DNA from: Rhizaria sp. SCN 62-66
Lineage: Eukaryota
DNA: 62,492 bases
Direction: 5' to 3'
Assembly: GCA_001724265.1 (NCBI GenBank)
Contig: MEDY01000148.1
Location: 1 to 62,492, forward strand
How positions within the stretch are numbered: the stretch's first letter is position 1; every line of letters begins with the position of its first letter. This document shows positions 1 through 61,273 of the stretch, one piece after another. The notes beneath the pieces were generated by a model. It was not told the DNA's origin, did no database searches, and saw nothing but the letters and a program-made list of their open reading frames with translations. A program made the translations under genes and the position numbers.

Positions 1-1551
1 CACGGGTCGCGCACAGTCGCGCACATCGCTTTTCGTGTCGTTAACCGCACGAATAGGACTACGCTTGTTCATGTACAATACAATCTTGTTGTGGAGGTCA
101 ACAACGCCGTTTAAATGCAGATGGCTCACGGCAATCATTTTGCCGCTCATAACCTCGCGGATTGCATCTTCAACAGCGCCAGCAACAATCCATACCTCGT
201 CGCTAGAGTTACCAAGCACAATACTGTATAAATTCCTGCCACACGCATCAGAAACCCCATCATACGGTGCACGGGTTATTGTTTTGGTGTAGTATGCGTC
301 CAAGAGCGGAGGCATAGTCTCAGAAACATCCGCGGATCCGAACATGCGTGTGATTGATAGCTTCATCGGAATAATGGGCGCCTTGTCGAGCACTACGGGC
401 TTGATCTAGGGATACGCGGCCACAATCTGCGCTAGAATTGCAGGGTTGCGTCCTGAAAGAGAGCGCTGCAGCAGGCCTCTGAAACTGTCTTGCCTCCTCC
501 TCAGAACAAGGGAGCAGAGCAGCTCGCCGCCCGACTGCCAGAGCAGCGAGTTCGAGAGCTCCGCGCTGCGCTGCCCCAAACGCTCAATAAACCTCATCGC
601 GAGTTCAAAGCAGCGAAAACAGCCGCCAAACGCAGCGGACATCAGCAGATCCAGCTGTAGGTCGCGGCTGCGGAACACAATCGCGATCGGCGCGGCCGCG
701 CCTGAAGTCACATCGGCCGCAGCGTTCCCGGTGTCGTCGCTGTTGCTGTTCGTGAGGAATGCAACCATATCGGCGTTGCCGTTGTTCGCTGCGGCAATAA
801 GCGGATAAAACAGCTCTACGTGCAGCGCTTCCGAATCTGAGGGGAAGCTGTAGCCGCAAGAGCCTGTGTGGGTTCGCATGTCATCCCGCCCCCACAACTC
901 CCTACTTAAGAACTCGGCCGGGTCCAGGCCCCACAGAGGAGTTATGATTTCAACCAGTGTCATACTAAGCCCGCGGCGAGCGTATTCGTCGAATAAGCCA
1001 CGCCTTTGCTAGTTCAGCGCTGCCCACTGCGTCGGCGTCGAGGATGAAAAAAGCGCGCGCGCACAGGCGACGCGGTTCAGCAGTGCTGCTAACAAGAGCG
1101 CAGTCAAGTTCCTGGTGTGCGCAGTTGTGACGTCAGCACCAGTCTAAAGTAGCGCCGTAACAACGCGCGGGAGGTCGAAATGCACTGCAGTTGTGAGCGG
1201 AGACGATCCACGAGTCGTGAGAACGTTTTCGCGCTCGCGAGTTGGGAACAGGGGCAGGGGGGAGCGGCCGCTCAGGGCTAAGGTGTCATTGATGTACACG
1301 GCGTAAAACTCTGGCGACAACAGAGCATGCGCTGCAGCCATGTTGAATAGAACTTCGTCTTCAATGCTAGCTTTGATGTAGTCAACATCGTCACTCTCTG
1401 CATCTGCTGTTGCCGTTGTTGTTGTGCCAGAAGTTGCAGACGCTGCGAGCTGCTCTATAAGGCGCACGAGTGCAGCTGGCTTGCAAAAGGACTCAGTTAG
1501 CGCAAGTGTCTCCAGGTAGGAAACCGCACGGCCATTTATAATACGTTGCAT
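1..1551 (-). CDS. Ankyrin-repeat protein, 3' end runs off the window; one frame of 517 codons with three in-frame TAGs (1144-1146, 1009-1011, 406-408)
   Basis: Manual translation shows ORFs 1144..1551 and 406..963 share a frame that stays open to position 1 apart from the three TAGs. Ankyrin-like text: SPLTTAVHFDLPRVVTALL*TGADVTTAHTRNLTALLLAALLNRVACARAL and YPLIAAANNGNADMVAFL. Could be a pseudogene if TAG is a stop. Confidence 0.6.
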
Positions 1552-2029
1552 TTTTGGCGTTTGCAGTTCCTGTCACTGCTTTGGGTGTGATAAGATATCT
1601 GTCAGAGAGAGTATCGAAAGAAGCTGTTGGGGAAAACTTGAAAGAATGATACCGCATGATCAAGAGATTCATTGCCGAGTTAGTTAATATGTGCTTAATT
1701 AATAGTTAAATAAACACTATAATATGATGTTATAAAGACGAAATGCAGATAATCCATGATGTTTTATGCCAAACAAGAACACCCCTCCATGACTCCAAAC
1801 TCCACCACAAACACAAACCTGCTGATCACCATTTGGTCACGTCACCACTGGTCACAGTCACTTTACCCAACAAGGAGTTCGGAAGCACGTACGGACATTA
1901 GATCGGGATCACCACACATGTGTTGTTTGAGACCGTATATTCTTCGTTGTTTTTTAGAGAAACATATCTGTGTTATTGCTCCCATCCTTCCATACGTCTC
2001 CTCCAAATCACACAGGTTAACGCAGTCCG

Positions 2030-5931: not shown

Positions 5932-6849
5932 ATGTTCCCCACGGTATTCGACTCGCGCTCGCCTAGCCCGGCTGGAAAGATGCTTTCCGGCACAGGTCCC
6001 CAGAAGGCTGGGTCTACAGGCTCCGCTCCTGGCGCTGGCCCTCGTCCTGCTGCACCGTCTTCCGCCGCAGTCGTCCCCGCGCAGCGCCGCGACGGGCCTG
6101 CCCCTGATCCTGTCTCTCTGTCCGCCGCGCTCCTTGCTCCCGGTGGCACGTCCTCGCTCACTGAGGCACAGATCCAGGACATTGTCAAGCAGAACGACGA
6201 GTTGCGCCTCCGACTGCGTGACTTCTCAAGTGCACTCGACCGTGCGCTGCGCAGTGCCAGCACGGGTGGCCCTGCGGCGGCTGCCAAGGCCGCTGGCAAC
6301 GTCCGTATCTCCACATCGGTTCAAGACCCCGAGGTCGCGAACATGCAGAAGCAGATGGACATCGTGCGGCGCGAGCGCGACGAGCTCCGGCGCCAGGCCG
6401 AGAACAACCCGTCGCTGGCCCGCGTGCAGGAGCTGGAGAACAAGCTCCGCGCTTCGCAGGACGAGACCAAGGCCGCCAAGAAGGAGTGCGACGTGATCAA
6501 GCTAGACCTTAAGCGCGCGCAGGACGCGCTGGCCGCCGTGCCCAAGCGGATGCAGGAGCTTGAGGCCCGCGAGCAGAGCAACCTGGACACCGTAGCGGGG
6601 TACAAGGAGAAGATGAAGGAGTATCAGGTGCGGCACGATCGCGACGAGGCCCAGATGCGCGCTGACAAGGCCCGCCTTGTGGACCTCGAGATGACACTCC
6701 GCAAGGCCAACTCCGGCGGCGCCAACGCTAACAGCAACAGCTCTGCAAGTGCGAACACCACGATGAACAGCAGCAAGAGCATCAGTGGCAACGCTTATGT
6801 CGGCGGCAGCGGCAGTGCCAACGTGACTGTGAGTGCTGGCAATAACAGC

Positions 6850-6908
<59 letters not shown>

Positions 6909-7035
6909 GACTGCTGGTGCCAACGGCAACAGTCGGTTTGCTCCTGCGTCGCCGCTGCTGCCGCCTATTGCCGGCGCGGCCAACAGCAACACTCAGCAGA
7001 ACGCCACCGCTCATACGAACGTCAATGCCAACAGC

Positions 7036-7075
<40 letters not shown>

Positions 7076-9419: not shown

Positions 9420-12400
9420 TTAATTTTCAACAAAATGAAGCACTTCAGCGACGACAGCAGCAGTCTCTTGTGATGCCCCCGTTGCCGCGGCCGCTGCGGC
9501 CAACCGCGCAGCCGCTGCGCTGCCTGCAACAAACGGTTTTTGCAGCAACACACGCTCCATCAGTGCACACTCTGCACGCGAGAGCTGTGAGCTGAGCATG
9601 AACAGTCGCGCCATCGACGTTTCCGACACAATCGCAGGCGAAACAGTCTCAGTCTCAGTTGCGTTGATGTTTTTGGAACTGTACTGATTATGAATAAACA
9701 GCAAATGACGCGCTGCCTGTGAAAGGGCGCGTTTCACAGCGTCAGAACGCATAAAATCTCTATCAGAGCTGCTCGTGTTGTTCCTGTCGTCGTTCATCTT
9801 GACAGTGATGAGGAGTGTGGTCAGATTGGCTGGCGAGTCCAGCACCGTTGACAACAGCGCCAAGCCGCCGTCAAGTAAAGTTGGCTCAGTTGACTGCGCT
9901 TGCGATAAGTCCGTCAGAAGCGCCGGAACTAACTCTTGCAACAGGGTCTCATCCAAGTCTTTCGCGCTGTTGCTGCTCGTGGACTTTGTCGAGGCAACGG
10001 CCCCCCTGGCGCCACCCTTGGCGCGCCCAAGCGTCTCGCGCGCGTCCGCACCACCCGCCACAGAAAAAACCACAGTCGCCGAGCGTAGTACACGCAGTGC
10101 AAGGCCGCGCAGCGCGGGCAACACACTCGCACCCCAGTCGGACTGTGTCGGCAACGCTTGCGGGATGTCCGTGGTGACCGCGCCGAGCACGGTCACACCG
10201 GCGGCCAGCGACGCCGCGTAGCACACGTTGAGCACGCTGTGCGTCACGGGGGCGAGATACGGGTGCAATGCAGCAGCGCGGCGCACGAGCTCCCGGTCGG
10301 CGTGCCACACACTGCTGACGGTTGAGTCTGCGGTACTTGGACCAGAAACAGCGAGACACCAGCGGTGCGCATCAAGAGCAATGGCATGAGCGACGGATGT
10401 AAGAGCCGACTGCGCCTGCGCAGCAACAAGCGCGGGAAGAAGCACAGACGCGCACCACGCAACGCACCGCGCAGCTGACGCAGTTGCCGCAGCGACGCTA
10501 GGGCCGGACTCATTGTTTGCCTCATCATTGTTGTCACTGTTCTTCGCAGCTGTGAGCACTGAGAGCGCAAGCGCAGCAACGTCAGGCGCGTTCGCCAGCA
10601 GCTGCGGCAGAATTGGTGCAAGCGTGAACGCTGACGCCGCAGTCTCCGCTACCGTGCACGCCGCCACAGCCTTGGCCTCAGCCGCTGCGGCTTCGCTGGC
10701 AATGCGAGCAATAATAGCATCAGATGTTACCTCCTTGGACGGAGTGCTAGGGTCAGTGAAAGGGACAGTCGCAGAGGCGAGCGTCGACGCGGACGAGAGC
10801 GGCGCGCTTACACCAAGAAGCAAGAGAGTAAGGGCGGCTTGGGTTCCAGCCGCGAGGCTCTCCGAGTCAAACCCCGAGTATATACCAGTATCAGCACCAT
10901 AGACCTTTGCAGTTGCAGTCGTTGTCGTGGAGTCGACACCTGCAGCCGCTGCGGCCAGCGGCACGATCGCGGAGAACCGCCCAGGTGCGTCGGCAAGCAA
11001 CACGCCACTGTGGGGCAACGCACGCGCGCGGGCACTGGGCAACGCTGACGAAATCACACCACCCGACGCGGAGGCCGAACTCCCCTGCAACAATTCTTCA
11101 TTCGCTGGAGTTGATGCAGTTGCCGAAACGTGCGCATTGCTAGTCGTGACATGGACAGCGGTGGACGACAGCAATGGCATCGACACGGCAACGCTTGTGT
11201 TGGAGTGCGTTGTCGTGGGAAGTGACGGCAGGTGCATCGCACCAGAGCCAGTGATGTTGACCCTCCGCAACACGCGTGCCCACAACGAGCGCACCTGGTT
11301 CCGACTGGCTCTGACATCAGCAACACTCACACTTGGCGTGAGCACCGATGCGGCTGTAATAGCAGCGGCAAGCAGGGCCACCGACGCAGTGGCGTCGGCC
11401 CAGCTCGCTGTTGTCACCAGCCGCTGCCTCCACTTCTGGTTGTGCACCCCCTTAGACGAAGATGTAAGTCCCTCCTTCGGCAGAGGCGCACTGGGAGTAA
11501 GGTGCAACATTGTGCCCAAGTGATGAGCAATGGTCGCGCCGGTGCCGGCGTGGCGGCTGAGCAAAGACCAAAGACGCTCACCGTCATTTGCAGTGGAGAT
11601 GATCAGGGCGCACGTGCGCGTGAGTACAATCAACGCGCGAGTCAGCGCGAGCGCTAAGCCACTGTGCTAACTCTTGTTCCCGCTATTCTGGGCATTCGCA
11701 TCCGCCAAAGCAGTCTGCTTTTGGAGCTGCGCGTGCGTAGAGAGCAACTGCAGCCTGCGGCGGGTTGCGCGGCGGTCGCCACGGCTCACGCCACGGCTAA
11801 CACTGCCGTTGCTCGTCCTCTGAACGCCAGATACAGTGGTTGCAGCAACGCCTGCGATGTTGCTCGAGGGCGCAACAGTTGCCGCTGTCACGGCGACGCT
11901 ATCCGCCGAGGTTGCGCTGCTGTTCGTCGGGGATTGCGATATACTCGAAGTCAGAGGATTGAAGGGTGCCGCATCGGCGGAAAGCGTCGATGTGCTAAGA
12001 CTGAGTGGTGAGGCACTTACATCGGTGACAAGTTGCTGGTCGGAGCCATCACCGCCGTCATTTTCATTCTCACGTTCCACTGTTGCTGTATCCCCAGTCA
12101 CTACATTCACATCTTTATCGGCGGGCACGCGAGCATCCGTTTTGCCATCGCTGACATCACTCACGCGCATGTGCGCAAATGCAACGAGGTTTGTCATCAC
12201 AGCCGCAGTCGCCACCAACAGTGCTGGCAGGGCCGCCGCAGCAGCATCAGGGTCTGCGCGCGCCGCTTGCGCGACACTACTCCAACCGGAACCAGCGCGA
12301 GCACTGGCGACTGCAACTGCAACGGCGGCAGATGCAAGTCCGTGGCCACCGGGCGTCACACACACATCCCGTGCAAGCGCCTCCGTAGTGTCATTCGCGG

Positions 12401-12807
12401 TTGCGGCGACAACAACAGCATTCGCTGAGGCTACAGCGGCAACACGGTGTGTAGCGTCAGTGCTTGTGCTGTTGTGCGTGAGCGCGAGAGTAAGTGCGCG
12501 AGCCGCCGAGGCAACATGCGAAAACGCACCAGTGGATGCGATTGAGTCGCACTCAACAGCATCACCGTTCTTTTCTTCGAGACCAGCGTCCGCGTCAGCT
12601 GCACTCCTGGTTTTCTCAGTGTCACCGTCGCCAGCGACAGTGGCAGCAGCCTCGGCAAACTCAGCTGCAGCCAGCGCTTCAGCGCGCCTGGCAGTCGTCT
12701 TGTTCTTCTTCTTGAGGCGCAGGTGGTACTTGCGCGCCGCGATAGCGCCCGCCACGGCCTCGGTCACAATCGCGGGGTCACTGTACGGGCCCTGACCTTG
12801 TTGTTGC

Positions 12808-12839
<32 letters not shown>

Positions 12840-13353
12840 AAACTGCGCGTCGGCACCAACAGCAGACGTACTTGCCGCCGCCTCAACGGCATCTGCGCCG
12901 TTATTGGTGGCAACCGCAGCGGCACCAGAGCCCACGTTCGCCCCATTCGGGACATTAACACTGTTGCTCTTGCGCCGCTTGGCGCGCCACTCCTTTTCCC
13001 GCGCCACGTGCTCGGCAGTGCGCAGGTGCGCGAGCACTGCGGCGGCACCCACGCCGGCCGCGGCGCCGCACGCACGGCACCGCATGCGCGTCGGGCGCCG
13101 CGGGTATGAGATGAGCCCTGAAGTTAAGCCGCTGCCGGAGCCGGAGCCCGGGGAGGTCACGCTCCCGCCCTGGGAGGCGACGACGCCGCTAGGGGACGCG
13201 GTGACGCTGCCGGTCGCGCTCGGCACAGGCAGCGCTGCAGTGTTCAGCAGCGCGGCAGCTGCTGCGGCATCTGTGGCGCCAGCGGTAGGCGTCGCGGCGC
13301 GCGACGGCATCGCAGACACGGGGACACTGGCGTTCACAGAAGTCACTCCATTG

Positions 13354-13398
<45 letters not shown>

Positions 13399-25220: not shown

Positions 25221-28200
25221 TCACTTCTGAGCCTTGCTGTTCGCTCTGCCATTCGCCCCCTTGCCACCACCACCGCTGCTGCTACTGCTGCTGCCCATGT
25301 TGCGGTGGAATGAGTTTGTGCTGTGGGGCCGCGAGTCCATCGGAGTGTTATTCGCGCTCAGCGCCTTGCCAGTCCACGCGCCGCCGCGAGGGTTCGCGCC
25401 CTTGCCGGGACTGGCGACCCCTTGGGTACTTGCGAAGCTCACAGCGTCACCGCCGCCGCCGGCAGGGTGGGGGTTGCGCCACTGAGACTGCCGGTCAGAC
25501 TCGGACAGCTTGCGCGGGCGACCTTGTTGTGGCGTTTGTGACTGCTGCTGCCGCGGCTTCTGAGCCTGACTGCCCTGCCCGCGCGCCGCCTGCTGCTGGT
25601 GACCGCTGTTGTCGTACTGGGGGGCGTAGCCGCCGACCGCAGCAACGTCGGGCGCGGGCAGCTGCGTCAGCGTCGCCCTCACATCCTGCAGTTGCTGAGT
25701 CTGGTCATACTGATCATACTGGTACTGCTGCTGCTGCTGCGCCTGCTGCTGGTGCTGCTGCGTCTGCAGCACGTCGATCTGCTGCCGCATCATCGCCGTC
25801 GTGGCTTCGTCGACGCCCTCGAGCATCTGCACCTGCTGCAGCAACGCCAGGTAGTCTGCAAGCGAGACCACGTTGCCCAGTGCGTCGACGACGACGGCGC
25901 TGCCCATTGCGGTCGCGTCCGGCGCTGCATCGGCGGCGCCGTAGCCCAGGTCAGTACCCGTGACCGTACTCGTGACATCCATGGCGCCCGTGCTGTCGTA
26001 GTAGCCGGCGTTGGTGTTGTAACCCAAGGCCTGAGCGTCGCCGTACGCGCCGCCCATCTCCTGCTGCTGCTGACTGTAGTAGCTGCTGCTGAGGGGCGCG
26101 TGGTTGGGCGAGGCCGACTGCGACAAGAGCGACACGGCCGGCGGCAGCGCGATCGGCCCGTCCGAGCCCGCACGCGCGCCCCGAGTCGTAGGCGCGCCTG
26201 CCGCACCCATCGCATTCGCCGCTGCTGCGTTCTTGACGTTGGCGTTGGCGGTGGCGTTGCTGCCGTACGAGGCCAGCGTCGTCGTGTGTGCGAACGCGTC
26301 GGCCGCGGCCGCGGTCGCGGCGGCGGCGGCGCTCGCGGCGGCAGCGACCAGTGGCGGCGACGCCAGCGGGCCCAGCCGCGGTGACAACGCAGCGTTGGCC
26401 ATAAGGGCCGCGGCGACGAGCGGGGACGCGCCCGCCGCGACGGCCGCCGCCTCGCCGCCAGCGCCCCCCGCCTGCGTACCATGGGTGTGATGCGGCGAGG
26501 ACACGGGGCCCGCGTGGGGTGACGCCAGAGGAGTCAGGAAGCCAGGCGGGGGCGCACCGGCGGCGGGCCGCGCATAGGCGCCAGAGCCCGGGCGCACGGC
26601 AGCGCCGGAGCCCGGGCGCATGGCAGCGCCGGAACCTGGGCGGAAGCGCGCGGGGGACGCCGCAGGCAGCAGCAGCCCGGAACCTGTCCCCACTGCAGCG
26701 GAGTTGGCGTGAAGCGCGGTTGACAGGGGGGAGCCAACGGCGGCGCCCGCGCCTGGGGGCTGCTGCTGTTGTTTGCGAGGGCTGAAGGCGTTGCCGCCGG
26801 CGATGTTGGAGCCCAGCGACGACGACAGCGCAAAGTCGCCCGTATCAGCGCTCGTCGCATTCGCGTTGGCGCTGGCGTTGGCGGCAGGGATTGAGCTGTT
26901 GAAGAAGTACCCTTCAGCGTTTGCGTTCACCGTAGTATCACCAGCCGCCACCGTAGCCAGACTGGCGTTGGTCGGCTTGCCGCCGTTGCTATCTTTGCTG
27001 CCGGGGGTCTTGAGCGCGCTGTCGATGGGCGACACGAGCGCAGACACGAGCGCGATCGATGACGAGAGGGAGTCGGCACGCGTGAGTAGCGGTGCCGGCC
27101 GCGGAATGATCGGCCGCGGCGGCGTGCCCAGGGCGTTAACCGTCGCCGCGGCAAGCTCGAGCTCGCGCGCCAGCACGGCGTCGGCGTCAGCCTCGGTGAC
27201 ATCGCCATCGCCGCAGCCGAAGTCACCGCCGAGCTCAGTGATATCCTCACCAGTATTGGAGGCGGCGGCGGCGGCGGCGGCGGTATGGGCGTTCGCGGCG
27301 GAGACGGCGTCGGTCGTGGCGGAGTCGGCCGTGCTGCGCAGCGGCGACGGCGGAGCCAACACCGGCGTGTCGGCCTCGCTTGCAACGGACGCCGCCACGG
27401 CGCCGGGCGCAACGCCGACCGCGACGGACACGGCGATGCCGGTGACGCCCGCAGCGCTGCCGCTGCCGCTGCCGCTGTAGCTGTTGACGGAAGCGGCGCG
27501 CGGCGACTGTGACGACTGCGAGGAGGGGATGTTGGGCGACACTGACGACGCCTGCGTGAGCACCGAGGCCAGCAGCCCGTTCGCGGGCGCGCCGCCTAGC
27601 CGCGCGCGGCCGCGCGCCTGCGGCTGAGGCAGCGGCGTCGGCATCACGAGCATCTGGTCGTTCTCTGCGCCAGCGTCCGCCGCCGCTGCTGCTGAGTCAG
27701 CAGCCGCAGCTGCAGCGGAGGCGGCAATCATGCGCGCTTCGGTCTCCGCCTCGGCTGCCGCGACCGCGGCGGCGGCGGCCATGGACTGGGCGTGCGCTTG
27801 CGCAAACGCCGCGTGCGCGTGGGCCTGGAGCACGAGCCGCTGGCGCTCGAGCTCGGCGCGCTGCTGCTCAAACTGGCGCTGCGCCTCGAACTGCGCGGCG
27901 CGGATGTGAGCGTTCTCGGCCTCGGCGGCCGCGGCGGCCTCGGCCTCGGCCTGCGCCTGCGCTTGCACCTGCGCCTGCGCCTGCGCCAGGAACGCCAACA
28001 TGTGGCCCGGGGGCACCGCAGACGCGGCGGGGGCGGTCGCCAGGTGACCGTGGGCGCCCGCGCCGCCCATCGTGCCGCCCAAGTGACCGTGGGCAGCGAG
28101 GTGACCGTGGGCGGCCAGGTGACCGTGGGCGGCGACCGTGGGCTGCTGCGGGAACCCTGTCGCCATCATGCCGCCGGCTCCGACGTAGGGCCCGTTGACC

Positions 28201-28899
28201 CCGCCGTTGTATCCACCACCGTACGCAACATCAGGGCCCGTGAAACCCGCGCCGTTGGGGGGCACGCCCGCGCCCGCGAGCCCCATGTTCGCGTTGTTGC
28301 CTACGTTGACGTTGACGTTCGCGTACATGTTGCCGTAGTGAGGAGCGCCGTATGACGAGGTCACGGCGTTGGCGGCGGCCACGGCGGCGGCGGCCGCGGC
28401 GGCGAGCGCGTTGTTGTTGGCGGCGGCGACCGCGGCGGCGGCCACGGCGGCGGCATTGGCGCTGACGTTTGACACTGCGGCCGTGGCGGCGTCGGCGTGC
28501 ATGGTCAGGTACGTCCCGTCGGTGTTGGACGCGTTCATCAGCATCAGCATCCCGGCATTACCACCGCCACCGCCGTTGTTGCTACTCGACGCGGCATTCG
28601 CGGTGGAGCCAGCGCCAGCGCCCGTGCCAGCAGGGTTTTGACGCGAGCGCGTCTGTTGCTTCGCGCTCGCAGTCCACTGCTGCTTCGCGCCACCCTGCAT
28701 CTGCACCGGCTGCTGCTGCTGAAGCTGCTGCTGCTGTTGTTGTTGCTGTGCAGTGTTGATCATCACGTTGTTGCTGCTGTTGCTGGTTGAGGAAGCAGCG
28801 GTGCGCGCGCGCGCACTGTTCACGCTACTGTAATTGTTGTTATTGTTGTTATGCACACCGGTGACATCACGCTTCAAACCCTGTTGCTGCTGCATCTGC

Positions 28900-28931
<32 letters not shown>

Positions 28932-30067
28932 GAACTGCGCAGCGAATGCGAGCTGACTTGGCGCCGTCACAGCCGCCGTGCTCCCGCCAGCGCTGCTCTT
29001 GGCCCCTGTCACAGTGTTGCCAGCAGCAGCAGCGGCTGCGGCAGCAGCGGCTGCAGCAGTGGACGCGGCGGCGGGCGGCGCGGTGCGCGCGGCGAGGAAC
29101 GCCTTTGCTAGTGAGCTGGGGTCGCGCAGCAGCGCGGGGTCATTGAGTCCCAGAGCAGCGAGCTGAGCCGAGAGCAGCTGGTACCCGCCGCGGCGGCCGG
29201 AGTGGTTCACTGCGATGGCCGCCGTCGGGACGGGCACTGGACCTGGGGCTGAGACCGGCGCAACGGAGGCGGCAGCGGCGGCGGTGGGCACCGGCTGCGG
29301 CTGCTGTTGTTGTTGCTGTTGTTGTTGCTTCTTGGCCTTGGTGCTCCTGTTTGTGGTGGCGGTGGCGGCGGCGGCAGGTTTGGTGACGCCGTCGACGTCG
29401 TTGTCTTTGACGCTCTTGTCAGCACTGCTGCTGCTGCTGCTGCTGCTGATCTGATCGTCGTCGCCGTCGGCAATTACGACGACAACACCGGTCGCAGTTG
29501 CGGCAGCAGCAGTCGGCGCATCGGCACCGGCAGGCTTAGCGGCACTGTCCTTGACAACAATTGCAGCAGCGCCGGAATCCTTCGCCTTCGCGCAAACGGA
29601 CCTGTCGGCGTTTGCACCGGCGGCATCAGTCTGCGTTGCAGCATTTGCAACAGACTCAACAAGAACATGAGCAGCGGTCTTGTCAGCCTTTTTCGCACCG
29701 CTCGGGCTGGCAATATTTGCAGCAATCTTGCTGTTCTCAGTGTGACCTCTAGTCCCTGCATTCGCATTCGCGGGCGCAGCGGCAGCCGCAGTAGCAGCAG
29801 CAACAGGCTTCGCAGCCTTCAATGTGGAGGGCATGGGCGCCGCCATTGGTGGCATGCTAGGGCCGGAGCCGATGCCTGCGCCAGAGCCTGAGCCCGCGGC
29901 GGCGGCCGCCGCGGCTATCGCGGCCGCGGCGGCAGCGGCGGCGAGCTGGTCGGCGACTGAGTACACCGTTGGTGGCGTCGCCACCAGCATGCTGCGCACC
30001 GCGGCGCCGGCCCCCGCCGCGCTACTGTGGGTCGCCTGCGACTGAGATGAGGGCTGCGTGTGCGGGA

Positions 30068-30102
<35 letters not shown>

Positions 30103-31816
30103 TGTTGATGTTGCCTCCGCTGCTGCTTGTCGTTGTTCAAGCCAGCCTTGGCCAATGTGTTGCCGCTGCCGACATTGTTGTGCGCGACAGCAGTCTGTGG
30201 CGGCAGCTGCGGCGGCGAGAGGAGAAAGCGCGCCTCGTCCGCCGCCGCCGCCGCCGTCGCTATGGCCGCCGCCGCCGCCGCGGGATCCGCAGCCGCCGAA
30301 GCTGCGGCCGCGGCCGCGGCCGCCGACGCCGCGGCCGCGGCTGCCGCGGAGACCTTGGTCGACGCGGCGTCGCGCGCGAACTTGACGATGGCGGCCTCGT
30401 GGCTGCCGCCGATGTGCTGGCCATCGCAGTGCAGGATCGCAGACAGCGCGGCCTGCAGCGAGTTGAACTGGACAAAGCCGACGTTGCGGGACTCGCCGTT
30501 GCCGTCGAACAACACCTTACAGTTCATCACCGTGCCGTAGGTGGAGAAGAAGCGCTGCAGCTCGAGCCGGCCCCACGCGTGGGGGAGCCCGGCCACGTAG
30601 ACGTTGGTCTTGGCAGTCTCCGCCCCCGCCGGCGCACCACCCGCCCCAGCCGCCGCCACAGAGGCCGCCGCAGCGCCGGGGCCCTGATGCTGCTGCTGCA
30701 GAGAGGACTCAGCGTGCGCGTGTGCGGCGTCGGGGCGCGAGTGCGTGACCGGCGATACCTTGAGCACTTTGCCCAACAGGTAGGTCCCGTTGAGGGCGCG
30801 CGTGGCGGCAGTCGCGGCGGCCGCGGTGGCGAAGGTGACGAAGCCGTACCCCAGCGAGGCGCCCGTGCTGGCGTTCCGCATCACGCGGCACGTCTGGATG
30901 TCGCCGTGGGGCGAGCACAGGCGCCGCAAGTCGTCCTAGACGGGACCAAGATGAACACATGTGGGAGTGCGAGCGAGTGAGAGAACGTGCATGGCGTTGA
31001 TATTAGGGCGGGCGTATTGAGGTTAACGAGGATCATTTTGGAAATGAAGGCAATTGTTCAGTAAATTTTTTTTTTTTTTTTTTTGTTTTGTTAAGTATGA
31101 GTGACCAAGCGTACCGTTGTGAGTGAAGGAGGCAGAAACTTGACAATGAGGTGCAGCGGGTTGTCAACGGCGCCGCCGCCGCCAATGGTGGAGCCAGCGC
31201 CGCTGCTGTTGTTGTTCGCTGCTTTGTTGGCAGCGCTCTTCGCTTTCGGCTGCTGCTGCTGTTGCGGCTGTTGATGTTGTTGTTGTGGGGGCGCAATGCC
31301 AGCGGCAGTGGCAGAAGCAGCAGGAGCAACAACAGCAGAAACAGCAGCGGCAGCGGGGGTGCCGCTCACACTCGCGGGAGCAGTCGCCGCCGCTGCAGAG
31401 TCAGATGTCGAAACAACAGCTGAAGTGTCACTACCGCCAGCGGCAGACGCGGCAGCAGCAGCAGCAGCAGCGGCGGCGGCGGCGGCGGCGGCGGCCTTCT
31501 TTTGTCTCTTGCTCAGCTTCTTGGGACCATCAGCTGCAACACCAGCTGCCGCCTCAGCTCCAGTCTCGGCCTCGGGATCAGTCGTGGCCTCGGTATAACC
31601 CGCGGGCCCTACAGTCGCATTCGCCGGTTGAGCGTCAACGGGGATGGTGGCGGGAGCGCTAGCGCCAGCACTGGCGCTCTCCGGCGCAGCGACAACCGCA
31701 GTCGAAGCACCATGAGCAGCGCCAGGAGTGCCATCAGCAGCTGCTGCTGTTGCAGAGGGGGCGCTGGCGCTGTTTCGCTGCGCGGCTGCGGCGACGGTAG
31801 TCGACATCTCGGGCAT
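25221..31816 (-). CDS. ELAV/Hu-like RNA-binding protein with two RRMs and a very long Ala/Gln-rich tail (~2,138 aa); exons 31816-31115, 30935-25221
   Basis: RRM1 LIVKFLPPSLTT|DDLRRLCSPHGDIQTCRVMRNASTGASLGYGFVTF; RRM2 NVYVAGLP...RNVGFVQF...VKFA. TGA stop. Confidence 0.8.
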
Positions 31817-34121: not shown

Positions 34122-34361
34122 ACAGATTGCGATTTGCTAACAAGGCGGTATGTCTCCTGTTCTTGCGTGCTCTGTGTGAGCTTCTGTGACTAAACATACT
34201 CGGATGGTCTGTGACACGGCACTTTATCTTATCATTTTACGGCCTAATACATCAAGTATTGAAATCAGTAGTTTCCTTTGTATTCAATCAAAACGTTACT
34301 GTCCACTTTTGCGCAGTTAATATTAAAGCTCGCATGCCATCTAAGTACCTCCTACATCCTC

Positions 34362-36700
34362 TTACATCGCGCTCCAACGCGGGTTCTGCACCACCACCTT
34401 GTCGCTCTTGAGCGCCTCCACTTCCTGCTCGCTCAGCCCCAACACCTCGGTCAGCACAACCTCCGTGTGCTGGCCCAGGAACGGCGGCGGCCGGCGCGCG
34501 TGCATCGGCAGCTGCACTTCGCCGGCCCGCACAGTCACGGGGCACTTGTTGCCTACGGCTGTCGCCGAGCTGCTGGCGCTGGTCAGAGAGGCGACAAGTG
34601 CGGATGCCTCAGTCATGTACGTGTTCGACGACGACGCAGCCGAAGGAGTACTTACATCGGCACTTACATCCGCACTAGTATTCAGTGGACGGTAGATCTT
34701 CACAGCGGGGCCAATCAACGCCAACTGGGTCCCTTGCTCCTGCTTCTCAGCGCTCGACGCTGGCGCTGCCTCAGCCTCGCATTCAGCGCGCGACTGCGGG
34801 TAGTCGACGAACTGCACCATCCCCCGGCTCAGCACCTGCGGGTGGTTCATTGTCTCGGCGACCGTGAGCACGGGTGCCACGGGCACGCCCAGCCCCGCCA
34901 GCGCCGTCAGCACGGCGCCCGCGTCGGCCGTGCGCAGACGTGCCGTGATCAGCGGCAGCAGCGCCGACTGGTGCTGCACGCGTAGTGGGTTGGTCGCGAA
35001 CCGAGGGTCGGCGGCGACGTCCGGGAGGTCCAGCCCGTCGGGACCGACAAGGAGCTTGAACTGCTTGTTGTTCAGCGCGCCCACGGCAATAAACCGGGGC
35101 GGCTCATTGGGAACAGCAGCGTTCGCACTAGCGGGACTATTCGCGGAGTTAGCGTTCGAGTCGCTCTTGCTGTTGTTGCTGTTGTCACCGGCGGTACTCG
35201 AGCTGTGGCCGCCGATAGGGAAGCACTGGTAAGGCACGATGGAGCCGTGCGCCGTGCCGCGGCGCTGCGAGACAACGCCCGCGGCGAGATACACCTGCGC
35301 AATGTTGGCCAGCGCGGCGACCTGGCACTCGAGCAGCGACGTCACCACACGCGCACCATCGGCGTATCCATCGCTCTTGGCACCAACACTACTCGCTGTG
35401 AAAGCGGACAGTTCTTGTGCTGCTGCTGCAGCGGTGACGGCGGAGGCCGCGCTGATGCGCGTGGGCCGGCAGCCCTGCTTGGCGGCCACGGCGGCCGAGG
35501 CCTGCGAGCCTGCGGCGCGCGCCTGCTGCTCCGTGTTGCCGGCCAGCAGTGCGGCGACAGTAGCCTCGAGCTAAGCTTCACGGCGACTGGCGCGGCGCGC
35601 GCGCTGCGCGGACAGAGAGGCCAGCACCGAGGACAACGTGTTGAGACCTGTGATGACGTCGGTCAGTGCCGCACCGGGGCGCGCCTGTAGTCGAACCGTA
35701 TCGTTGACGTAGAGTTGAAGTGCAACAAGAATTGAGTACAATGATCAAGAGCTGCATATGAACTAACAGTTACAATTGTTTGACGAAAAATAGCACACAA
35801 TCACCCCATAATAAGGTCGCCTCGACTCATGATTTGTATAGTTGTGCATATGCGTGTGACATCGATGCACAAAGACGACTAACGTACCGGAGCATCAGGC
35901 GCACCCGTGACACCCAGCAGCCCGCCGAGCGAGCTGGCCATAACGTCATATCCGGCGGTAGCGCGCATCACGCCGCTCTCGCCGTAGCCCGAGATCGAGG
36001 CGTAGATCAGGTTGGGGTTTTCCCTGGTCAAATCATCGAATCCCAGTCCCAGCTCGTCGAGCTTGCCCGGGATGTAGTTCTCGACGACGACGTCGCACTG
36101 GCGGGCAAGCTGCTTCACCAGGGCAACGCCGCGCGGGGACTTAAGGTCCACCGCAATCGAACGCTTGTTGCGGTTCAGGGCGAGGAAGTACGCGGCCTCG
36201 CCACGGAACCCCGACTCAGCAGCACAGCTCGCAGTCGAAGCTGTGGCAGTCGCGTGATTGGCTGCAGCGGCAGGAGGCTTTGCGGTAAGCGCAGAGATGT
36301 CGTAGGGGTTCTGGAGCTGCTTGCGAAACTCCACAGTGCTCTGTGTCAGCGGCGCGGGCTTGTCTGCGCTGAAAAAAGGCGGCCCCCACTCGCGCGTGTC
36401 GTCGCCGCCAGTCGGGTTCTCGATCTTGATCACCTCGGCGCCGAGGTCGCCCATCAGCATCGTGCAGTACGGGCCCGCGAGCACGCGCGTGAGATCCAAA
36501 ACGCGCACGCCCAATAGGGGAAGCTCTGTCAGACCAGGCGCGGGCGGCGTGGACTGCGCAGCGCTGGTCGCGGTGGTGGAGAACAGGCGAGGACGGGAGT
36601 GCCGAGGGGGGGCCAGGAGATTGCTGGAGCTGCATACTGCAACTGCGCTCGCAGCAGAGCCGATGCGCATAGCACGGCGAGTGGCGCACAGTGCGAACAT
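34362..36700 (-). CDS. CaiB/BaiF family III CoA-transferase (SUGCT-like), probable mitochondrial presequence; exons 36700-35888, 35684-34362; in-frame TAG at 35571-35573
   Basis: [64 protein letters not shown] (catalytic Asp region), [37 protein letters not shown]. Arg-rich N-terminus. TAA stop. Confidence 0.9.
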
Positions 36701-42276: not shown

Positions 42277-45200
42277 TCAGATGTGCGACTTCTTCTTGCC
42301 CTGTTGAATGTGCCGCGCACGGTACGCAAAGCGCAGTGTAGACAGCGTCTCAAGCACCTGCGCGTGGTCGCGCGAGCACGTCACAAGCAGTGTGCGCTTG
42401 CAGTTGGCGTACCCACCGAGCGCCTGCTGCAGCATCTTGGTCAGCTCGCTGTCGCGGTACGGGATGTGCGTCGTGCTGGGGTTAGACAGGCACAAGATGC
42501 AGCGTTCCAGCGTGGCGAGCGACTTGTTGATGTTCTTCGCTTCCTCGAACCGCTTGCCGTGCGTGAGACTCTTTTTCTGCCGCTCGGAGCCGGCGAGATC
42601 GACGAGGTTGAACTTGTTGCGCTCGCGGAAATTACGCTCCACGTTGGTCTGCGTCAGCGTGATGGTGAACAGACAGTGCGAGCGTGACGAACGCTCGTTC
42701 ATCTGCGTCGCAAACACCGTCTTTTGACGCTCTCCGGTGGCGAGGATGTGGTCCACGTCCTTCATACTGCTCGCGCGCAGCAGAGCCGGGTTGTCGAGGC
42801 GGAAATCGCGGTCATTGGCCATGTCCTCGATCAGCTGTAGCCGCGCGCCGCCATTGAGCAGGTCGTGGATACGGTCCTGGTAGATCTCCACGTAGCTCAC
42901 CTCGAACGTGTACGACGTGCCGTGCTCGTGGTTCAGCGTGTGCAGAATTTGCTCGCACGCGCGCGGGACCACGCCCCACAGCGACCGGTCCGCCGGCGTC
43001 AACTGGCCGGTTACGGGATGGATCAGACTGGGACCGAACATCGTCCATGTCTTGCCTGACGCTGTCTGTCCGTAGACAAAGACCGTGGCCGAGTAGCCGA
43101 AGAGCACGTCGCGCGTCATGCGCCACACGAGGCGCGCGTAGAGGTCCTTTTGCGTCGTCGTGCCCGCGAACACGTCGTGGAACTGGAAGTGACGAGGCCT
43201 ATAGAAAGCAATAGAAAAATGGTGTGAAAAAAAAACACATCTTAGAATATTATGCAGAAAGACAGTTGAAAACAACGTGATGACGACGTGACAGACTCCC
43301 GAATAATTTGGTCGAGATAATGCGACTTGAATAAAATATAAAACGTGTAGCAGCAAAGCGTTGGTCGTACCTGTCGTCGACGGTGGCGCGGACCGAGGCC
43401 GTGAGCTCGGAGACCTCAACGATCTCGCACTTGCCCTGGTGCATCTCGACCCACGACCGCGCGTCGTCGCCCTCATCGTTGTCGCCGCCCGCCGCGCCGC
43501 CCGCGCCGCCGCGCTGCTGCTGCTGTTGCTGCTTGCGTGGGCTCGTGCTGCGGCGACTGGGACTGCCGCTGCCGCCGCCCGCGCCGCCGCGCGGTCGCGC
43601 TTGCTGTGCCGCCGACAACGAAAGCGACGCGAACGACGACGTCATCGACCCGCGGCCGCGGCCCGGGCTGCCGCTGCGGGGGCTCCCGGACGCCGTCGCC
43701 GGCCCCCCGCCGCTGGGGGCCGTGGTCGTCGCGCCGAAGCTCACACGCCCTGCGCCGCTCGTAGTGGACTGGGGGCCCGAGGAGGCGGCCCCTGGGGTGA
43801 TGATCTCGTATCCCTCAGGCGCGTCCTCGTCGTCGTTGTTGGTGCCATTGACGCCGCCGCCGTTCGCAGCCCCGATGCCATGGCCCGCGGCGCCGTGCCC
43901 AAACCGCCCGCGCGCGTTGCTGTTGCTGCTGCCCGCGCTGGCTGCGCTGCCATCAGTGGTGAACTGCGCCTTCTCGGCCTGCTCTTCCTCCGGCAGCGGC
44001 TTGAAACGTACGGCGACGCGGAGGTGGAACATGCGCTGGCCCTTTTGCTTCTCCAGCTCCAGAGGCACCCACTTGGTGAAGTACGTGTGCAGGTACCGCT
44101 TCCAGTCCGCGCACGCGTGCTCCGCCGGCAGCGACCAGGCGGGCTTAGTGGCGAAAAACTCGAGGCACTTGTTGTACCAGATCTCGTGCACGTTACATGC
44201 TTCGCCGACGCGGGTCGACACCAGCGCAAGAAGCGCGGCCTCGGTGAAGGTCAGGAAGCCGCAGACGCGGACCCAGAGCCGCACAGGCAGCGTCGCCCAG
44301 TTGGCCTCGGAAGACATGTTGGGCACCATGGCCGCGATCGCGCGCGAAACGGTCTCGCGCTCCTCTGCGTCGCCCAGTGTCAGACTGGCGCGGAACGTGT
44401 CATACTGCTGTTTGGTGACCTGTGCGCGCACGAGGCAGCCGTCGAGCTGCCGCAACGCGCTCGCGATGGCGCCGTCGGCCGCGCGGCGGGCGCCCGAGGC
44501 GACGGCGAGGGCGTCGTCGCGCGCGCGTGCGTCGTCGCCGTCGTCGGCGCGGTGGTAGAAGGACAGCAGGGCGAGCGCGGCCTTCTGCTCGGCGGCGTCG
44601 CCCGACTCGAGTTTTGCGGAGATGTTTAGGTGCTGCGCGTGCGTGATCGCGCCAGAGGCCAAGTCGCTGTCGAGAACGTCAAGGATCTGGCCAACACGCT
44701 CGTGCGAGAGCACTCCGCTCGTGGCCGCGGCGGCGGCGACCATGCTCGCACTCGCGCTGCTGCTGCTGTTGTTGTTGTTGTTCGCGGCCGCGACGGCGGC
44801 GGCGGCGGCGGAGGTGGGCGCGCGCGATAGAGCGAGTGCGTTGCCGACGGGGCCCGTTTTGCTCTCATCGACGGCGGCAGCGCCAGCGCCCGCGGCAGAG
44901 GTGGCCGGGCGCGACTGCTGTTGCGCAGCGTTGCTGGTGTTGCTGGGGGAGGTAGCGCCGGAGGGATTCTCGGAGTCGGTGAGCGGCAGGTAGGGCGCTT
45001 CCTCGCTGGAGATGATAAACTGTTGCGCGGTCAGGTCGTAGGTGCCCGCCTTCCACAGGTCAACACGTTGGCCAGCCTAGAGTCGCAAAGCCAGATCAAA
45101 GAAACAAGAATAAAGCGGTCGTTAGAGGAAGAAACTGGGTAAAGAAATAGCTGTTCCATTGAAATCAACAATAGCGGGGTTTCATAAGAAATGACTTCGA

Positions 45201-57289: not shown

Positions 57290-57880
57290 ACGTGGTACAG
57301 GCGGGCCGTATATACATTGCGGCGACAGTGTCAGCACTGTCGAGCGTGTGTATAACGCGTCACAGGACGAAATTCAGGCCCTCGGCGCGCTGTTGTGGTA
57401 TCTATGGGCAACTAAGGACTACAAGCTGTTGCTTTAAATCACGGGCATGTCCCAGGATAACGTTGTCGTATACGCTAACGCGTCACACGCGACAATGCGC
57501 ATGGGCCGCTCTCATATGGGTTACATCGTTAAGATCGCGGGCATGCCTATGATATGGCGCTACTCAATCCAGAAGAGTGTCGCGCGTTCACCCAAGGTTT
57601 CGGAACCGCGCGCGCTGTCAGAGGCTACAGAGGCGGCATTATGGACCAAAGATGTGTTTGAGTGGCTTGGCTGCAAGACAAAGAGCCCGGTGCATGCTCA
57701 CACTGACAACATGCCCACGGTAATGCTGTTACAGAGGCCGGTGACGGGCAAACCCAGCAGTTATGACTGCATTCAAGACGCGCGCTATGTGTTCGAGTGT
57801 GTGGACAAGGAGCAAGTCAAGGTGCAGTACGTGCAGGCTAAGCACAACAAGGCTGACATTATAACCAAGGCTCTCAAACC
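57290..57880 (+). mobile_element. Degenerate Ty1/copia retrotransposon fragment (end of RT plus RNase H)
   Basis: ALGALLWYLWATKDYKL, then VYANASHA...RSHMGYIVKIAGMPMIWRYSIQKSVARS...TDN...VKVQYVQAKHNKADIITKAL follow the copia RT-RNase H consensus. Frameshifted, first catalytic Asp replaced by Asn, no LTR seen. Confidence 0.8.
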
Positions 57881-59047
57881 GGGCACACTGGTCAGACAGA
57901 CGGACAGGAGATACATCGCGTGCTCGTCATTGGCCGCCGTCGCAATCTTGTGCAGCGTCCGCGCGCCGTGCTCGGGGTCGTGCCGAACGCCGACGCCCAG
58001 CACGTAGTGCATCGCCAGCTCCGCGCGACCCGCGGGGCGGCCCGTCGCGTCCGCGCCCATGGCAAAGCGGAACGAGTCGTCATGGTCCTTGGGCTGGCCA
58101 TAAAGGCCCTTGTAGCTAACCTCCGAAAGCAGAATAAGCGCCCACACGTCGCCCGCGTTGGCGGCAATGCGCAGCTAGCATGTGTCGGTCGCGGAATTGC
58201 ATGTTTCGACGAGGTGCTTGCCAAGGGTCACTTGCACTTCGGTCACACCCGCCTCGACCGCAGCCTTCGTGTGCAGCATCAAGCGCTCGCTCTTGCCGTA
58301 ATACGCCACTGCGGGGCCATAGAAGCCGTCGCCCTCGGCATATTGCCCAGATCGCAGCATCAGCGTGTGTCCAAGCGTGGCGTCCGGCTTGAGGGCCAAA
58401 CTGACCATAGTACGTCACACGGCCGTATGTATACATGACAGCCAGTTCGCCCTTCTCCACGCCGCACCGCAGCCACGCCAAGATGTCAACGTTCTTCCGA
58501 TCCCTGAGTTGCGCCAGAACGCCCGTCTCAACGCTGTGCGCAAAGATGGCCGCCACGCGCCCTCCGCGCGCTGGTGGCCAGCGGCGATGGCGGCGTGCAG
58601 GCTTTGCTCGGCATCGTCGAGGTCGAGCTAGCACGACATCAGCCACAGCGCATACTCGTAGCTGCCGTTGGCGCTCAGCGCGGCCAGACTCTTCATCCAC
58701 TTCTTGGCGCCGGTAATGCTATAGCGGCCGAGCTCGGGCCGCACACAGCTCTGCGCCATCTTGCGGATCGCCGCCGGGTGGCCCAGCTTAGCCGCGTCGC
58801 CCACGATCCCCAGCACCTCTTGCAGGTCGCCGCTTGTGGGCGAGCTGGCCAGTAGCGCGGGCCCAATCTCGAACAGCTCCTGCGCCTTGGCGGACGGCGC
58901 CGGCGGCTGCAACGGCAGGGCGGATGCGTTGCGCTGCACGAGGAGCGGTTTTGCCGTTGCAATCGGCTGTGACTGTGCAAAGTAATCGTTCTTGGCCTGC
59001 TGCTTTTGCTGCTGCTGTTGCTGCTGCTGCTGTAGCCTTTGCTGCAT
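57880..59047 (-). pseudogene. Decayed Sel1-like repeat region, in frame with the upstream kinase
   Basis: DAAKLGHPAAIRKMA, AWLRCGVEKGELAVMYTYG, *LRIAANAGDVWA, LAMHYVLGVGVRHDPEHG. TAG 58628 and 58175, two compensating frameshifts near 58560 and 58395, truncated at the copia fragment. Confidence 0.7.
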
Positions 59048-61273
59048 TTACTGCGTCGGACTTAGCTGCACCACGTGGCCACCCACCGACTGTGCGGACT
59101 GCGGAGGCACCAAGCTCAGCTGCGCAAATTGTTGCGGTAACGGATAGCTTGGGTATTGTCCCGACGAAGGCTGCGACTCGCGTCCCACAGCGGGCTGCGT
59201 GCCCCGCAGTTCTTGCTGCTGAGACTGCTGAGACTGCTGAGTTTGCTGAGGGCCGCTTGTAGCTTGCTGAGTGCGAAGAGACGACTGCACAGACGCTGAC
59301 ATTGAAGAGGATGTCACCGCTGGCTGAGGCCGCGGTGTTGTCGGCGACGGCGGGGGCCTCACCACACCGGGCGAGACTACAGTTGCCGACAATACTACGG
59401 ACGAGGTGCCGCTGAGGACCAACTCGTGCACGCTGACCGGGGGCACGTCCGTCGATCGCGTAAGCCAGCCCTCGTTAATGGCAGAGTTGCTCGGCGTCGA
59501 GCGGCGCACGCCCTCTTGCTGTGATGCCTGTGACGCTTGATAACGCTCTTGCTGCGCGACGGGCCTTGGCGACAGCCGCCCTCCGTTGGCTGCGAGCGCC
59601 GCTGCCGCCTGGAATGGCAGAGAGAGTAGCTGGCCGGACGGCGAAACCGGCAGCTGCGTCGCGGAGTCCACCGCAGTTGAGCCGCTGTCATCGCGGACCG
59701 GCTGACGAGGCATGCGCGGCGGCACGCGTGGGGGCACGAGGGGTAACGTTGAAAGCGGTTGCGTCCGCGAGTTCGAAGGTGAAGACGCGCCATCCGCGTC
59801 GCTTACAGGCAGCCGCGGGGGACCGCGGCCGAGGGCCTTGAGCATGAAGTTGCGCACGGCCCGCTCATCGCTTGGAATGGCCTCAAGCTTGTCAACCAAG
59901 TCGTCAATCGCTGGGCGCTTGTCACGCTCTGCATGCCAGCACATGCGAATGAGCTCGATCAGCGCAGGCGGCGGCTCCGTGCCAGGCAGTAACTTGGGCT
60001 GTGCGACACCGTTGTAGGCATCGAGCTCAAGCGTGGGGCGCACACCGCCGGTGATCAGCGCAGGAATTTCTTGGCTTGTCAGGTTTGCAAGCGGCATTAC
60101 ACCAAACGCAATCTCGAACAACGTCATTCCCAGTGCATAAACATCCGACTTGGAATTATGTTGGTAACGTCCACTCAGCAGCTCCGGCGCCATCCACGCA
60201 AGGGTACCCGAAACAGAATCTATCACAATGACACAATGAGTATTGAGATATGAAAATCAAACAATATGAGCACATGTAAATTGAAGATCATGTTTGACTA
60301 GATATTTTTCCCTCGTTGATTGTTGTGACGAAGATATTGTTGATGACGTACGAACTGCAGACGCGAGTGTCATGCTCTGCATCGTTGCGTGAAGCTTTGA
60401 GTTGCCAAAGTCGGACACCCTAACGAGCGCGCGCGTGTCGTTTCCGCCGAGTCCCCAGAGGAAGTTGAGTGGCTTGATGTCGCCGTGGACGATGTTCTCG
60501 ATGCTGAGAGCTTTGATGGCGCTGGCAACCTGCAGTGCCAGCCACACGCGGCCCTGGCTTGAGAGAGTGCGGTAGTCGGGATGCGTCAGCAGCTTGCTGA
60601 GCGGGCCGCCGTCCATGTAGTCCATCACGATGACGAACTTGTTTGCATCTCCGGAGCCGATGACGCTGCCATTGAGGTTGCCGCTACTACCCAAAGCGTT
60701 CGTGTCCGTGAAGCCGCGGCAGCGCACAACATAACTCGACCGGAGGTGGTATTGGACGTTGAGTTCTTGCATCACATCTTCCTTCTCCCGCAGCGCGTCC
60801 ATGCTTGCGTTGAGCACCTTGAGCGCCACCTACTTGGGCTCGGCGCCCTCGGGCTGGTAGGTTGCGCGGTAGACCTTCGAGTAGCCGCCGCGCCCGACAG
60901 GGTTAACGTCGTGAACGTTGACGAACGCAATCCGGGGAATCTCGTTGTTACTGCGGCGGCCGTGGCTGCTGCTGCTGCCGCTGACGCTGCGGCTCAGCGC
61001 ACTCTTGGGCAAGGGCTGTCCGGACGCGCCGAAGAATGAGGACGCGTTAAACGCCATCGGCAAGACTGTTGAGAGCCCGAACCGGTGCGTTATTGCTGCT
61101 AAGCACCGCAAGAGCTCATTGTCAGTCTCGAGAATCAGTGAGTTGGAGCGGCTGCTTCCCTCCTCATCCGCCGAAGTCGGCAGCTGGGCGATGAAGTCCC
61201 TCGTCCTGTATAGAAGTGGTTGCAGCTCTGACAACGCATCTCGGTTGCTCTCACCCAAAGATTGCTGACTCAT
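59048..61273 (-). CDS. TKL-like protein kinase; exons 61273-60352, 60219-59048; in-frame TAG at 60830-60832
   Basis: VGRGGYSKVYRATYQPEGAEPK*VALK, QE, HGDIKPLN, DFG, GTLAWMAPE, SDVYALG, CWHAERDKRP: all catalytic motifs present, no frameshift. Ends at TAA 59048-59050. Confidence 0.75.

Follow-up and report, generated by a model that had tools for sequence, protein, structure and literature searches.

The described genetic codes closest to the one considered here are those in which UAG alone has been turned from a stop into a sense codon. In the account of PMC5304391, UAG encodes glutamine (Gln) in Iotanema spirale and leucine (Leu) in the sainouroid rhizarian exLh, with UAA and UGA remaining stops; exLh has 384 UAG codons in 71 genes, none of these 71 genes ends with UAG, and in its proteasome genes no Leu codon is used more often than UAG. 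PMC11687900 lists serine (Ser) as the meaning of UAG in Scotinosphaera and UAG-only reassignment in Protocruzia tuzeti and phyllopharyngean ciliates, and gives Gln as the commonest UAG reassignment. Codes that read both UAA and UAG (UAR) as Gln are reported for ciliates, hexamitin diplomonads, some Ulvophyceae, Streblomastix and Amoeboaphelidium (PMC5304391, PMC11687900), and the AT-rich Amoebophrya sp. ex Karlodinium veneficum (Amoebophrya sp. Kv) uses all three stops ambiguously (PMC12005148). The subject of this analysis is contig MEDY01000148.1 of Rhizaria sp. SCN 62-66, taken over its whole length of 62,492 nucleotides (the 62.5-kb window), and, within it, a TAG codon in the middle of a gene for a family III coenzyme A (CoA)-transferase. 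This TAG is most likely translated, with a probability of about 0.72: UAG appears to be a rare sense codon here, probably for Gln or glutamate (Glu), and UAA and UGA still terminate. Compared with the codes listed above, the pattern in the window matches the UAG-only stop-to-sense codes and not the UAR = Gln or the ambiguous all-stop codes.

Judged by its sequence, the gene is a two-exon family III CoA-transferase similar to SUGCT (succinate--hydroxymethylglutarate CoA-transferase). It consists of the following elements.

35888..36700, minus strand: exon 1, 271 codons from the ATG at 36700-36698, encoding a basic N-terminal leader and a Rossmann-like N-terminal part
35685..35887, minus strand: intron of 203 nucleotides, phase 0, GTACGT...CAG, content of G and C (GC) 0.41
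34365..35684, minus strand: exon 2, 440 codons with the TAG counted in
35658..35660, minus strand: codon GAC of the catalytic aspartate (Asp), exon-2 residue 9 (D9), within TDVITG
35352..35609, minus strand: lineage-specific insertion relative to SUGCT and bacterial homologues, about 86 residues (approximately exon-2 residues 26-111)
35571..35573, minus strand: the in-frame TAG, exon-2 codon 38 (plus-strand letters cta)
34362..34364, minus strand: the terminator TAA, followed by AT-rich sequence

The Pfam family PF02515 (CoA_transf_3) matches exon 1 (E = 2.7e-57, 195 bits) and, downstream of the TAG, exon 2 (E = 3.1e-21, 76.3 bits, profile positions 238-352 of 366), in both cases above the curated cut-off of 23.3 bits. 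The two exons have a GC content of 0.65 and 0.67, against 0.41 in the intron. The basic leader looks like a mitochondrial presequence, and the enzyme is probably mitochondrial. Human SUGCT is the closest solved structure (PDB 9br7, E = 3e-24): exon-2 residues 2-25 align with chain residues 172-195 and residues 112-156 with chain residues 205-249, and the four aligned stretches together cover chain residues 172-408 of 412, so that the C-terminal half is complete. The Asp that follows the G-x-P-x-R-x-G segment is invariant in all six sequences of alignment A1 and pairs with the SUGCT motif RPGVAMTDLATG; its catalytic role is established for family III CoA-transferases and is presumably shared by exon-2 D9. 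The PF02515 domain, the catalytic Asp motif and the PPPxLGQHT block are common to the window gene, human SUGCT (9br7/9br6) and the bacterial CaiB/BaiF proteins. Unlike these, the window gene has the insertion of about 86 residues after the catalytic-Asp helix, low-complexity insertions (three further large ones are present), an intron and the in-frame TAG.

The original prediction placed the TAG downstream of the catalytic-Asp segment and ahead of the conserved C-terminal half, and this is what is found: the translation of 35690..34360 (minus strand) reads as quoted there, and the 9br7 alignment agrees. The TAG lies 29 codons after D9, inside the insertion, where SUGCT has only about 9 residues. 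Downstream of it, 402 further codons are open and homologous and include all the conserved C-terminal blocks, among them PPPFLGQHT. Together with the alignment of the closest relative on either side of the TAG, this exceeds what chance would give.

Relatives were sought in two ways: 5.8 billion proteins were screened by word index, and 1.84 billion representatives were searched exhaustively with HMMER. Only three of the 1.84 billion representatives reached E<=1e-30, and the word-indexed search was concordant. One of the three (P0001) is the downstream open reading frame (ORF) of the window itself, deposited as a 328-residue fragment that starts after the TAG. The other two are environmental proteins, P0002 (405 residues, 51-65% identical to the window protein) and P0003 (527 residues, 35-48% identical). 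Both possess the insertion and run uninterrupted through the TAG site. The joined exon 1-exon 2 protein is collinear with P0003, which has no intron at this point (...GITGSEAEPARAGIASTDIITG); in P0002, an intron occupies the same position as in the window gene (HFQ|ARPG). The predicted C-terminus, NPRWSAM followed by the stop, agrees with the ends of P0002 (HPRWTQ...) and P0003 (HDRWK followed by the stop). At the TAG site, P0002 has Glu (RRDARRIA-E-LDATVAALAAG), and P0003 has Gln in alignment A1 or Glu in alignment A2, an ambiguity of one column (ASSEEE-Q-LRKQVCALQQR). The insertion segment around the TAG is common to the three relatives, namely the window protein, RRIAELDATVAAL and SEEEQLRKQVCAL.

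The original prediction described the site as a tolerant one within a lineage-specific insertion. The insertion is indeed lineage-specific by the 9br7 alignment; the tolerance stands only in part, given that all three relatives have the segment and that it falls in a confidently predicted helix. In the AlphaFold model of P0003 (mean predicted local distance difference test score, pLDDT, 87.6), the residue equivalent to the TAG (223/224) is within a 55-residue helix (192-246) that begins at the catalytic Asp; the block pLDDT is 91-97 up to residue 240 and 93 at the TAG-equivalent site. Thus, as far as the model indicates, the TAG would be located in a structured, shared segment, lineage-specific yet distinct from disordered filler. 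The original prediction had also allowed for an intact second copy of the gene. Neither of the two database searches contained a near-identical or intact second copy of this CoA-transferase, the next match after the gene itself being 51-63% identical. The gene is most likely functional, and a full-length product is predicted.

Splicing does not appear to offer a way around the TAG. If the intron upstream (donor at 35887) took the TAG as its acceptor, the frame would be preserved but 37 residues would go, including the Asp that is invariant in six of the six sequences. The original prediction had argued that the catalytic segment would be deleted in this way, and this candidate was rejected because the catalytic Asp would be lost. 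The 37-residue stretch ahead of the TAG is GC-rich, matches P0002 (ARPGAAVTDVITG...) and is coding in the relatives. A hidden intron around the TAG was rejected as well. Altogether, 73 frame-preserving GT..AG spans contain the TAG; the 40 that were listed have a GC content of 0.67-0.75, compared with 0.41 for the real intron, and none of these 40 has the GTAYGY donor (GTACGT/GTATGC) or the pyrimidine-rich acceptor of the real introns in the window. The earlier statement that no AT-rich intron fits locally thus holds for these spans. The introns of the window are about 125-210 nucleotides long, with donors AAG|GTACGT, GTATGC or GG|GTACGT and pyrimidine-rich acceptors ending in TAG or CAG.

The CoA-transferase TAG is not isolated. 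Every stop in the window that is flanked on either side by 60 or more open codons was inspected. In-frame TAGs occur in three other genes.

60830..60832, minus strand: TAG in a protein-kinase gene (GRGGYSKVYRATYQPEGAEPK-TAG-VALKVL), between the Gly-rich loop (GRGGYSKV) and the VAxK lysine
1144..1146, minus strand: first TAG in an ankyrin-repeat gene (VVTALL-TAG-TGADV), residue 143
1009..1011, minus strand: second TAG in the ankyrin gene (WAALN-TAG-QRRG); the paralogue P0033 has Leu
406..408, minus strand: third TAG in the ankyrin gene (VAAYP-TAG-IKPVV); P0033 has Gln
11667..11669, minus strand: TAG in a giant gene, joining ORFs of 3138 and 748 codons

A single Pfam Pkinase match spans the kinase TAG (residues 157-335 against profile positions 3-153), and the Ank (residues 122-149) and Ank_2 (116-176) matches span the first ankyrin TAG. 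The ankyrin gene is 78% identical to its paralogue P0033 over 370 residues. It does not resemble a decayed pseudogene, because this alignment shows in-frame gaps only (5 gap positions) and no other stop. The gene (1-1572, minus strand) extends past the start of the window; P0033 is a protein of 479 amino acids, encoded on a 95-kb contig, that starts 16 residues past the first ankyrin TAG site, which would be compatible with a TAG at the corresponding position of the paralogue. The giant low-complexity ORF (9423-21110, minus strand; about 3,880 codons) is rich in Ala, Ser and Gln, has no Pfam domain, and ends at a TAA followed by AT-rich DNA; it is continuous only when the TAG at 11667-11669 is read through. 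The third-position GC content (GC3) on the two sides of this TAG is 0.67 and 0.68, with no AT-rich spacer. Another ORF, 2264-2704 on the plus strand, has coding-like flanks and no Pfam match; TAGs stand in its frame at 2579-2581 (SADDP-TAG-TEFLK) and close to its end.

Five in-frame stops in three genes are supported by homology (one in the CoA-transferase, one in the kinase and three in the ankyrin gene), and all five are TAG. Six TAGs, but no TAA and no TGA, stand in frame over 18 coding segments totalling 12,858 codons, a count that is biased by the choice of segments open under TAG read-through. The TGA at 60257 falls within an AT-rich intron, and the TAA at 59048 and the TGA at 58415 belong to a frameshifted stretch outside homology-supported coding sequence. 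The opposite pattern is seen at gene ends. Among 18 ORF ends examined, 11 were judged to be true gene ends (six TGA, five TAA and no TAG), a small sample whose choice is the author's judgement; an end was accepted when AT-rich sequence follows the stop or when the C-terminus agrees with homologues, the latter checked for the CoA-transferase against P0002 and P0003, for a kinesin against P0036, and for a proteasome subunit against full-length PDB chains. The seven ends set aside comprise three stops just inside an intron, three uncertain cases and one in the decaying stretch described next. The exact probability of the split between five internal, homology-supported stops (all TAG) and 11 terminal ones (none TAG) is 1/4368, with the reservation that ascertainment was not blind. 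Both the further in-frame TAGs and the gene ends support the recoding that the original prediction proposed for this locus.

The stretch next to the kinase gene serves as a contrast. The kinase ORF ends with the TAA at 59048, and the same frame runs on into Gln-rich and then Sel1/TPR-like sequence (57776-59050, minus strand), which has no Pfam match at E<=0.1. Over 59047-57776, this sequence contains, beyond the TAA, a TGA (58415) and two TAGs (58628 and 58175), and it can be read only with two frameshifts that compensate each other, near 58565 and 58400. Either a former C-terminal extension is decaying here, as its appearance suggests, or the sequence contains errors; the stretch is read as decaying sequence, given the frameshifts and the copia fragment that it adjoins. 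This fragment (57438-58100, plus strand, opposite to the Sel1-like stretch; ...KHNKADIITKAL...) has no Pfam match at E<=0.001 and is a putative remnant of a Ty1/copia polyprotein, resembling its C-terminal portion (RNase H, integrase-adjacent). Decay in this window is marked by TAA, TGA and frameshifts; the four TAG-bearing genes show TAG only.

Compared with the described systems, the window shares with the UAG-only codes UAG codons within the frame of conserved genes, the retention of UAA and UGA as stops, and gene ends free of UAG (none of 11 in the window, none of 71 in exLh). The differences are that UAG is far rarer here than in exLh (6 in 12,858 codons versus 384 in 71 genes), that the proteasome exon of the window has no in-frame UAG, unlike the proteasome genes of exLh, that the window is GC-rich with AT-rich introns of about 200 nucleotides, and that Leu is disfavoured. 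The UAR = Gln codes are similar in that UAG would stand for a polar residue, possibly Gln, but here TAA terminates 5 of the 11 genes, including the CoA-transferase. With the all-stop codes (Amoebophrya sp. Kv, Blastocrithidia, Condylostoma), the likeness consists in stops inside essential-looking protist genes and the resulting breakdown of gene prediction; the difference is that only TAG is in frame here and that the exons are about 65-67% GC, in contrast to the AT-rich Amoebophrya sp. Kv. Amoebophrya sp. Kv was rejected as the source of the window for its AT-richness and its use of all three stops, and exLh itself is an unlikely source because UAG is abundant there. Trypanosomatids are not known to have introns of the kind present in the window. 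The literature searches gave no GC-rich, intron-bearing non-ciliate with a UAG-only sense code beyond those named.

For the residue inserted, Gln or Glu fit the TAG sites best. The kinase TAG faces Glu in a weak alignment with ULK1, and the printed PDB ankyrin alignments have Glu, Lys, Asp, Asn, Gln, Ala or Arg at the position of residue 143, never Leu or tryptophan (Trp). The Leu of exLh, the Ser of Scotinosphaera and the Trp expected from A-to-I editing appear to fit worse, five sites being too few to decide. The CoA-transferase locus itself cannot tell which amino acid UAG encodes, because the TAG lies in an insertion. On balance, Gln is somewhat favoured, in part because of its prior as the commonest reassignment (PMC11687900); an amino acid other than Gln or Glu is doubtful, and Glu by itself a little more so. 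Under the scheme that we infer, a transfer RNA (tRNA) with the anticodon CUA would insert the amino acid at UAG, most likely Gln and next Glu, and the release factor eRF1 would no longer terminate at UAG or would do so weakly. Ribosomes would then pass exon-2 codon 38 to produce the full enzyme of about 711 residues, with the recoded residue in a long helix continuing that of the catalytic Asp; the same rule would apply across the genome.

Several observations weigh against translation of the TAG, in addition to the biased choice of segments and the judgement involved in a small sample of gene ends. The residues facing the TAG sites are not uniform, being Glu in P0002, Gln or Glu in P0003, and Leu and Gln in P0033. 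A sense TAG would be very rare (6 in 12,858 codons, about 0.05%). A tRNA scan of the 62.5-kb window yielded no tRNA gene of any kind. If a quarter of the terminators were TAG, its absence from all 11 gene ends would still be expected about 4% of the time. Gene decay does happen in this genome, as the Sel1-like stretch indicates. Finally, about 64% of single-base nonsense mutations give TAG under this codon usage, and six of six TAG is therefore weak evidence when taken alone (0.64^6, about 0.07).

The last two points bear on the explanation of the TAG as a young nonsense mutation (GAG or CAG to TAG) in this copy, in which case the gene would only lately have become a pseudogene, or the copy would be a null allele or an error of the assembly, with TAG an ordinary stop. 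The CoA-transferase gene has a single defect, and the Glu and Gln codons of its relatives (of the GAG/CAG type) are one base away from TAG, both in favour of this explanation. It would have to account, however, for five further clean TAGs, partly at conserved kinase and ankyrin positions and spread over three other genes that show neither TAA nor TGA nor a frameshift, for the lack of TAG at the 11 judged gene ends, for the intact and conserved state of the 402 codons past the TAG, and for the absence of an intact second copy from the two database searches; we consider it unlikely. Slightly less probable still is an ambiguous UAG that terminates in some contexts and, inside genes, is efficiently read through by a suppressor or near-cognate tRNA, similarly to Condylostoma, karyorelicts, Blastocrithidia and Amoebophrya sp. 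Kv but limited to UAG. The rarity of in-frame TAG and the sampling of just 11 gene ends would suit such a code, and C comes after five of the nine in-frame TAG sites listed, TAG followed by C being a leaky stop context. Nevertheless, none of those ends is TAG, and the nine listed sites have no common downstream motif. In addition, the ambiguous codes described in PMC12005148 also involve UAA and/or UGA, whereas homology-supported coding sequence here contains neither TAA nor TGA.

Correction at the RNA level, either by adenosine-to-inosine (A-to-I) editing of UAG to UGG (Trp) or by unconventional splicing, seems very improbable. A-to-I editing of premature stops is known in sexual-stage transcripts of some filamentous fungi, and a kinase gene with an in-frame TAG recalls the fungal cases. 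Yet Trp is found in none of the four residues of relatives or the paralogue at TAG sites (Glu; Gln or Glu; Leu; Gln), and the first ankyrin position has only the residues named above in the printed PDB alignments. The splicing variant is opposed by the lack of an intron-like span and by the loss of the catalytic Asp with the TAG as acceptor. The closest named relatives of the window kinesin are not fungal. Translation of the TAG as a sense codon is retained as the preferred explanation.

Some further comparisons had little to contribute. Codon-usage log-odds scans for coding sequence on both sides of stops picked up the kinase TAG under one setting but not under another; they were too weak and noisy in GC-rich, low-complexity DNA and were not used. 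The comparison of ORF lengths under TAG, TAA or TGA read-through was uninformative because GC-rich off-frames yield long spurious ORFs, and premature ORF ends in kinesin relatives were uninformative as extra pairs of stop versus residue. A check of TAG = Gln in poly-Gln tracts had no power: none of the six TAGs is in a run, an outcome expected about 14% of the time, as only 28% of Gln residues are in runs of at least three.

The window as a whole is eukaryotic nuclear DNA with GC-rich exons and AT-rich introns and spacers (GC content of 1-kb segments 0.43-0.74). Genes with Pfam matches encode ankyrin repeats, a proteasome beta subunit, an RRM protein, a DNAJC9-like protein, CoA_transf_3, a kinesin, an NF-YB-like protein, Pho88, JmjC, S1 and a protein kinase; an Rfam scan of the 62.5-kb window gave no match. 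The kinesin motor is at the C-terminal end of its gene (42280-43200, minus strand), and its relatives are environmental proteins, 79% and 63% identical, the closest named ones being a family of kinesins annotated as unnamed protein products of a beetle assembly (35-37%). Scores of the proteasome subunit against PDB chains did not discriminate between taxa. The lineage seems very poorly sampled. Long homopolymers and short-period repeats, including poly-Asn, poly-Gln, (AKAKADAE)n and His-Gly runs, occur at 5677-8982 (plus strand) and 25224-30935 (minus strand), and the conserved enzymes of the window also carry large low-complexity insertions. Several TAGs in the read-through ORF listing are intron acceptors, e.g., near 30935, 33596 and 54981. 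Besides the CoA-transferase intron, the window has introns at the following positions.

33389-~33596, plus strand: intron
~4216-4340, plus strand: intron
~23320-23120, minus strand: intron

Nuclear codes with UAG alone as sense are rare, about three non-ciliate cases being named in PMC5304391 and PMC11687900. For annotation, the right code is needed, given that standard gene callers split or truncate genes of this kind, as in the 328-residue database fragment; and the CoA-transferase TAG locus yields a clean tryptic peptide for mass spectrometry. More tentatively, and at somewhat less than even odds, the window may come from a eukaryotic lineage with a newly seen variant code at an early stage of UAG capture, in which UAG has gone from gene ends and is returning as a rare sense codon (about 0.05%) for Gln or Glu; such a lineage would be a GC-rich, intron-bearing, non-ciliate example. 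UAG-only codes bear on how the recognition of UAG and of UAA by eRF1 can be uncoupled, and a genome with very few sense UAGs would, if this holds, be a snapshot of early reassignment.

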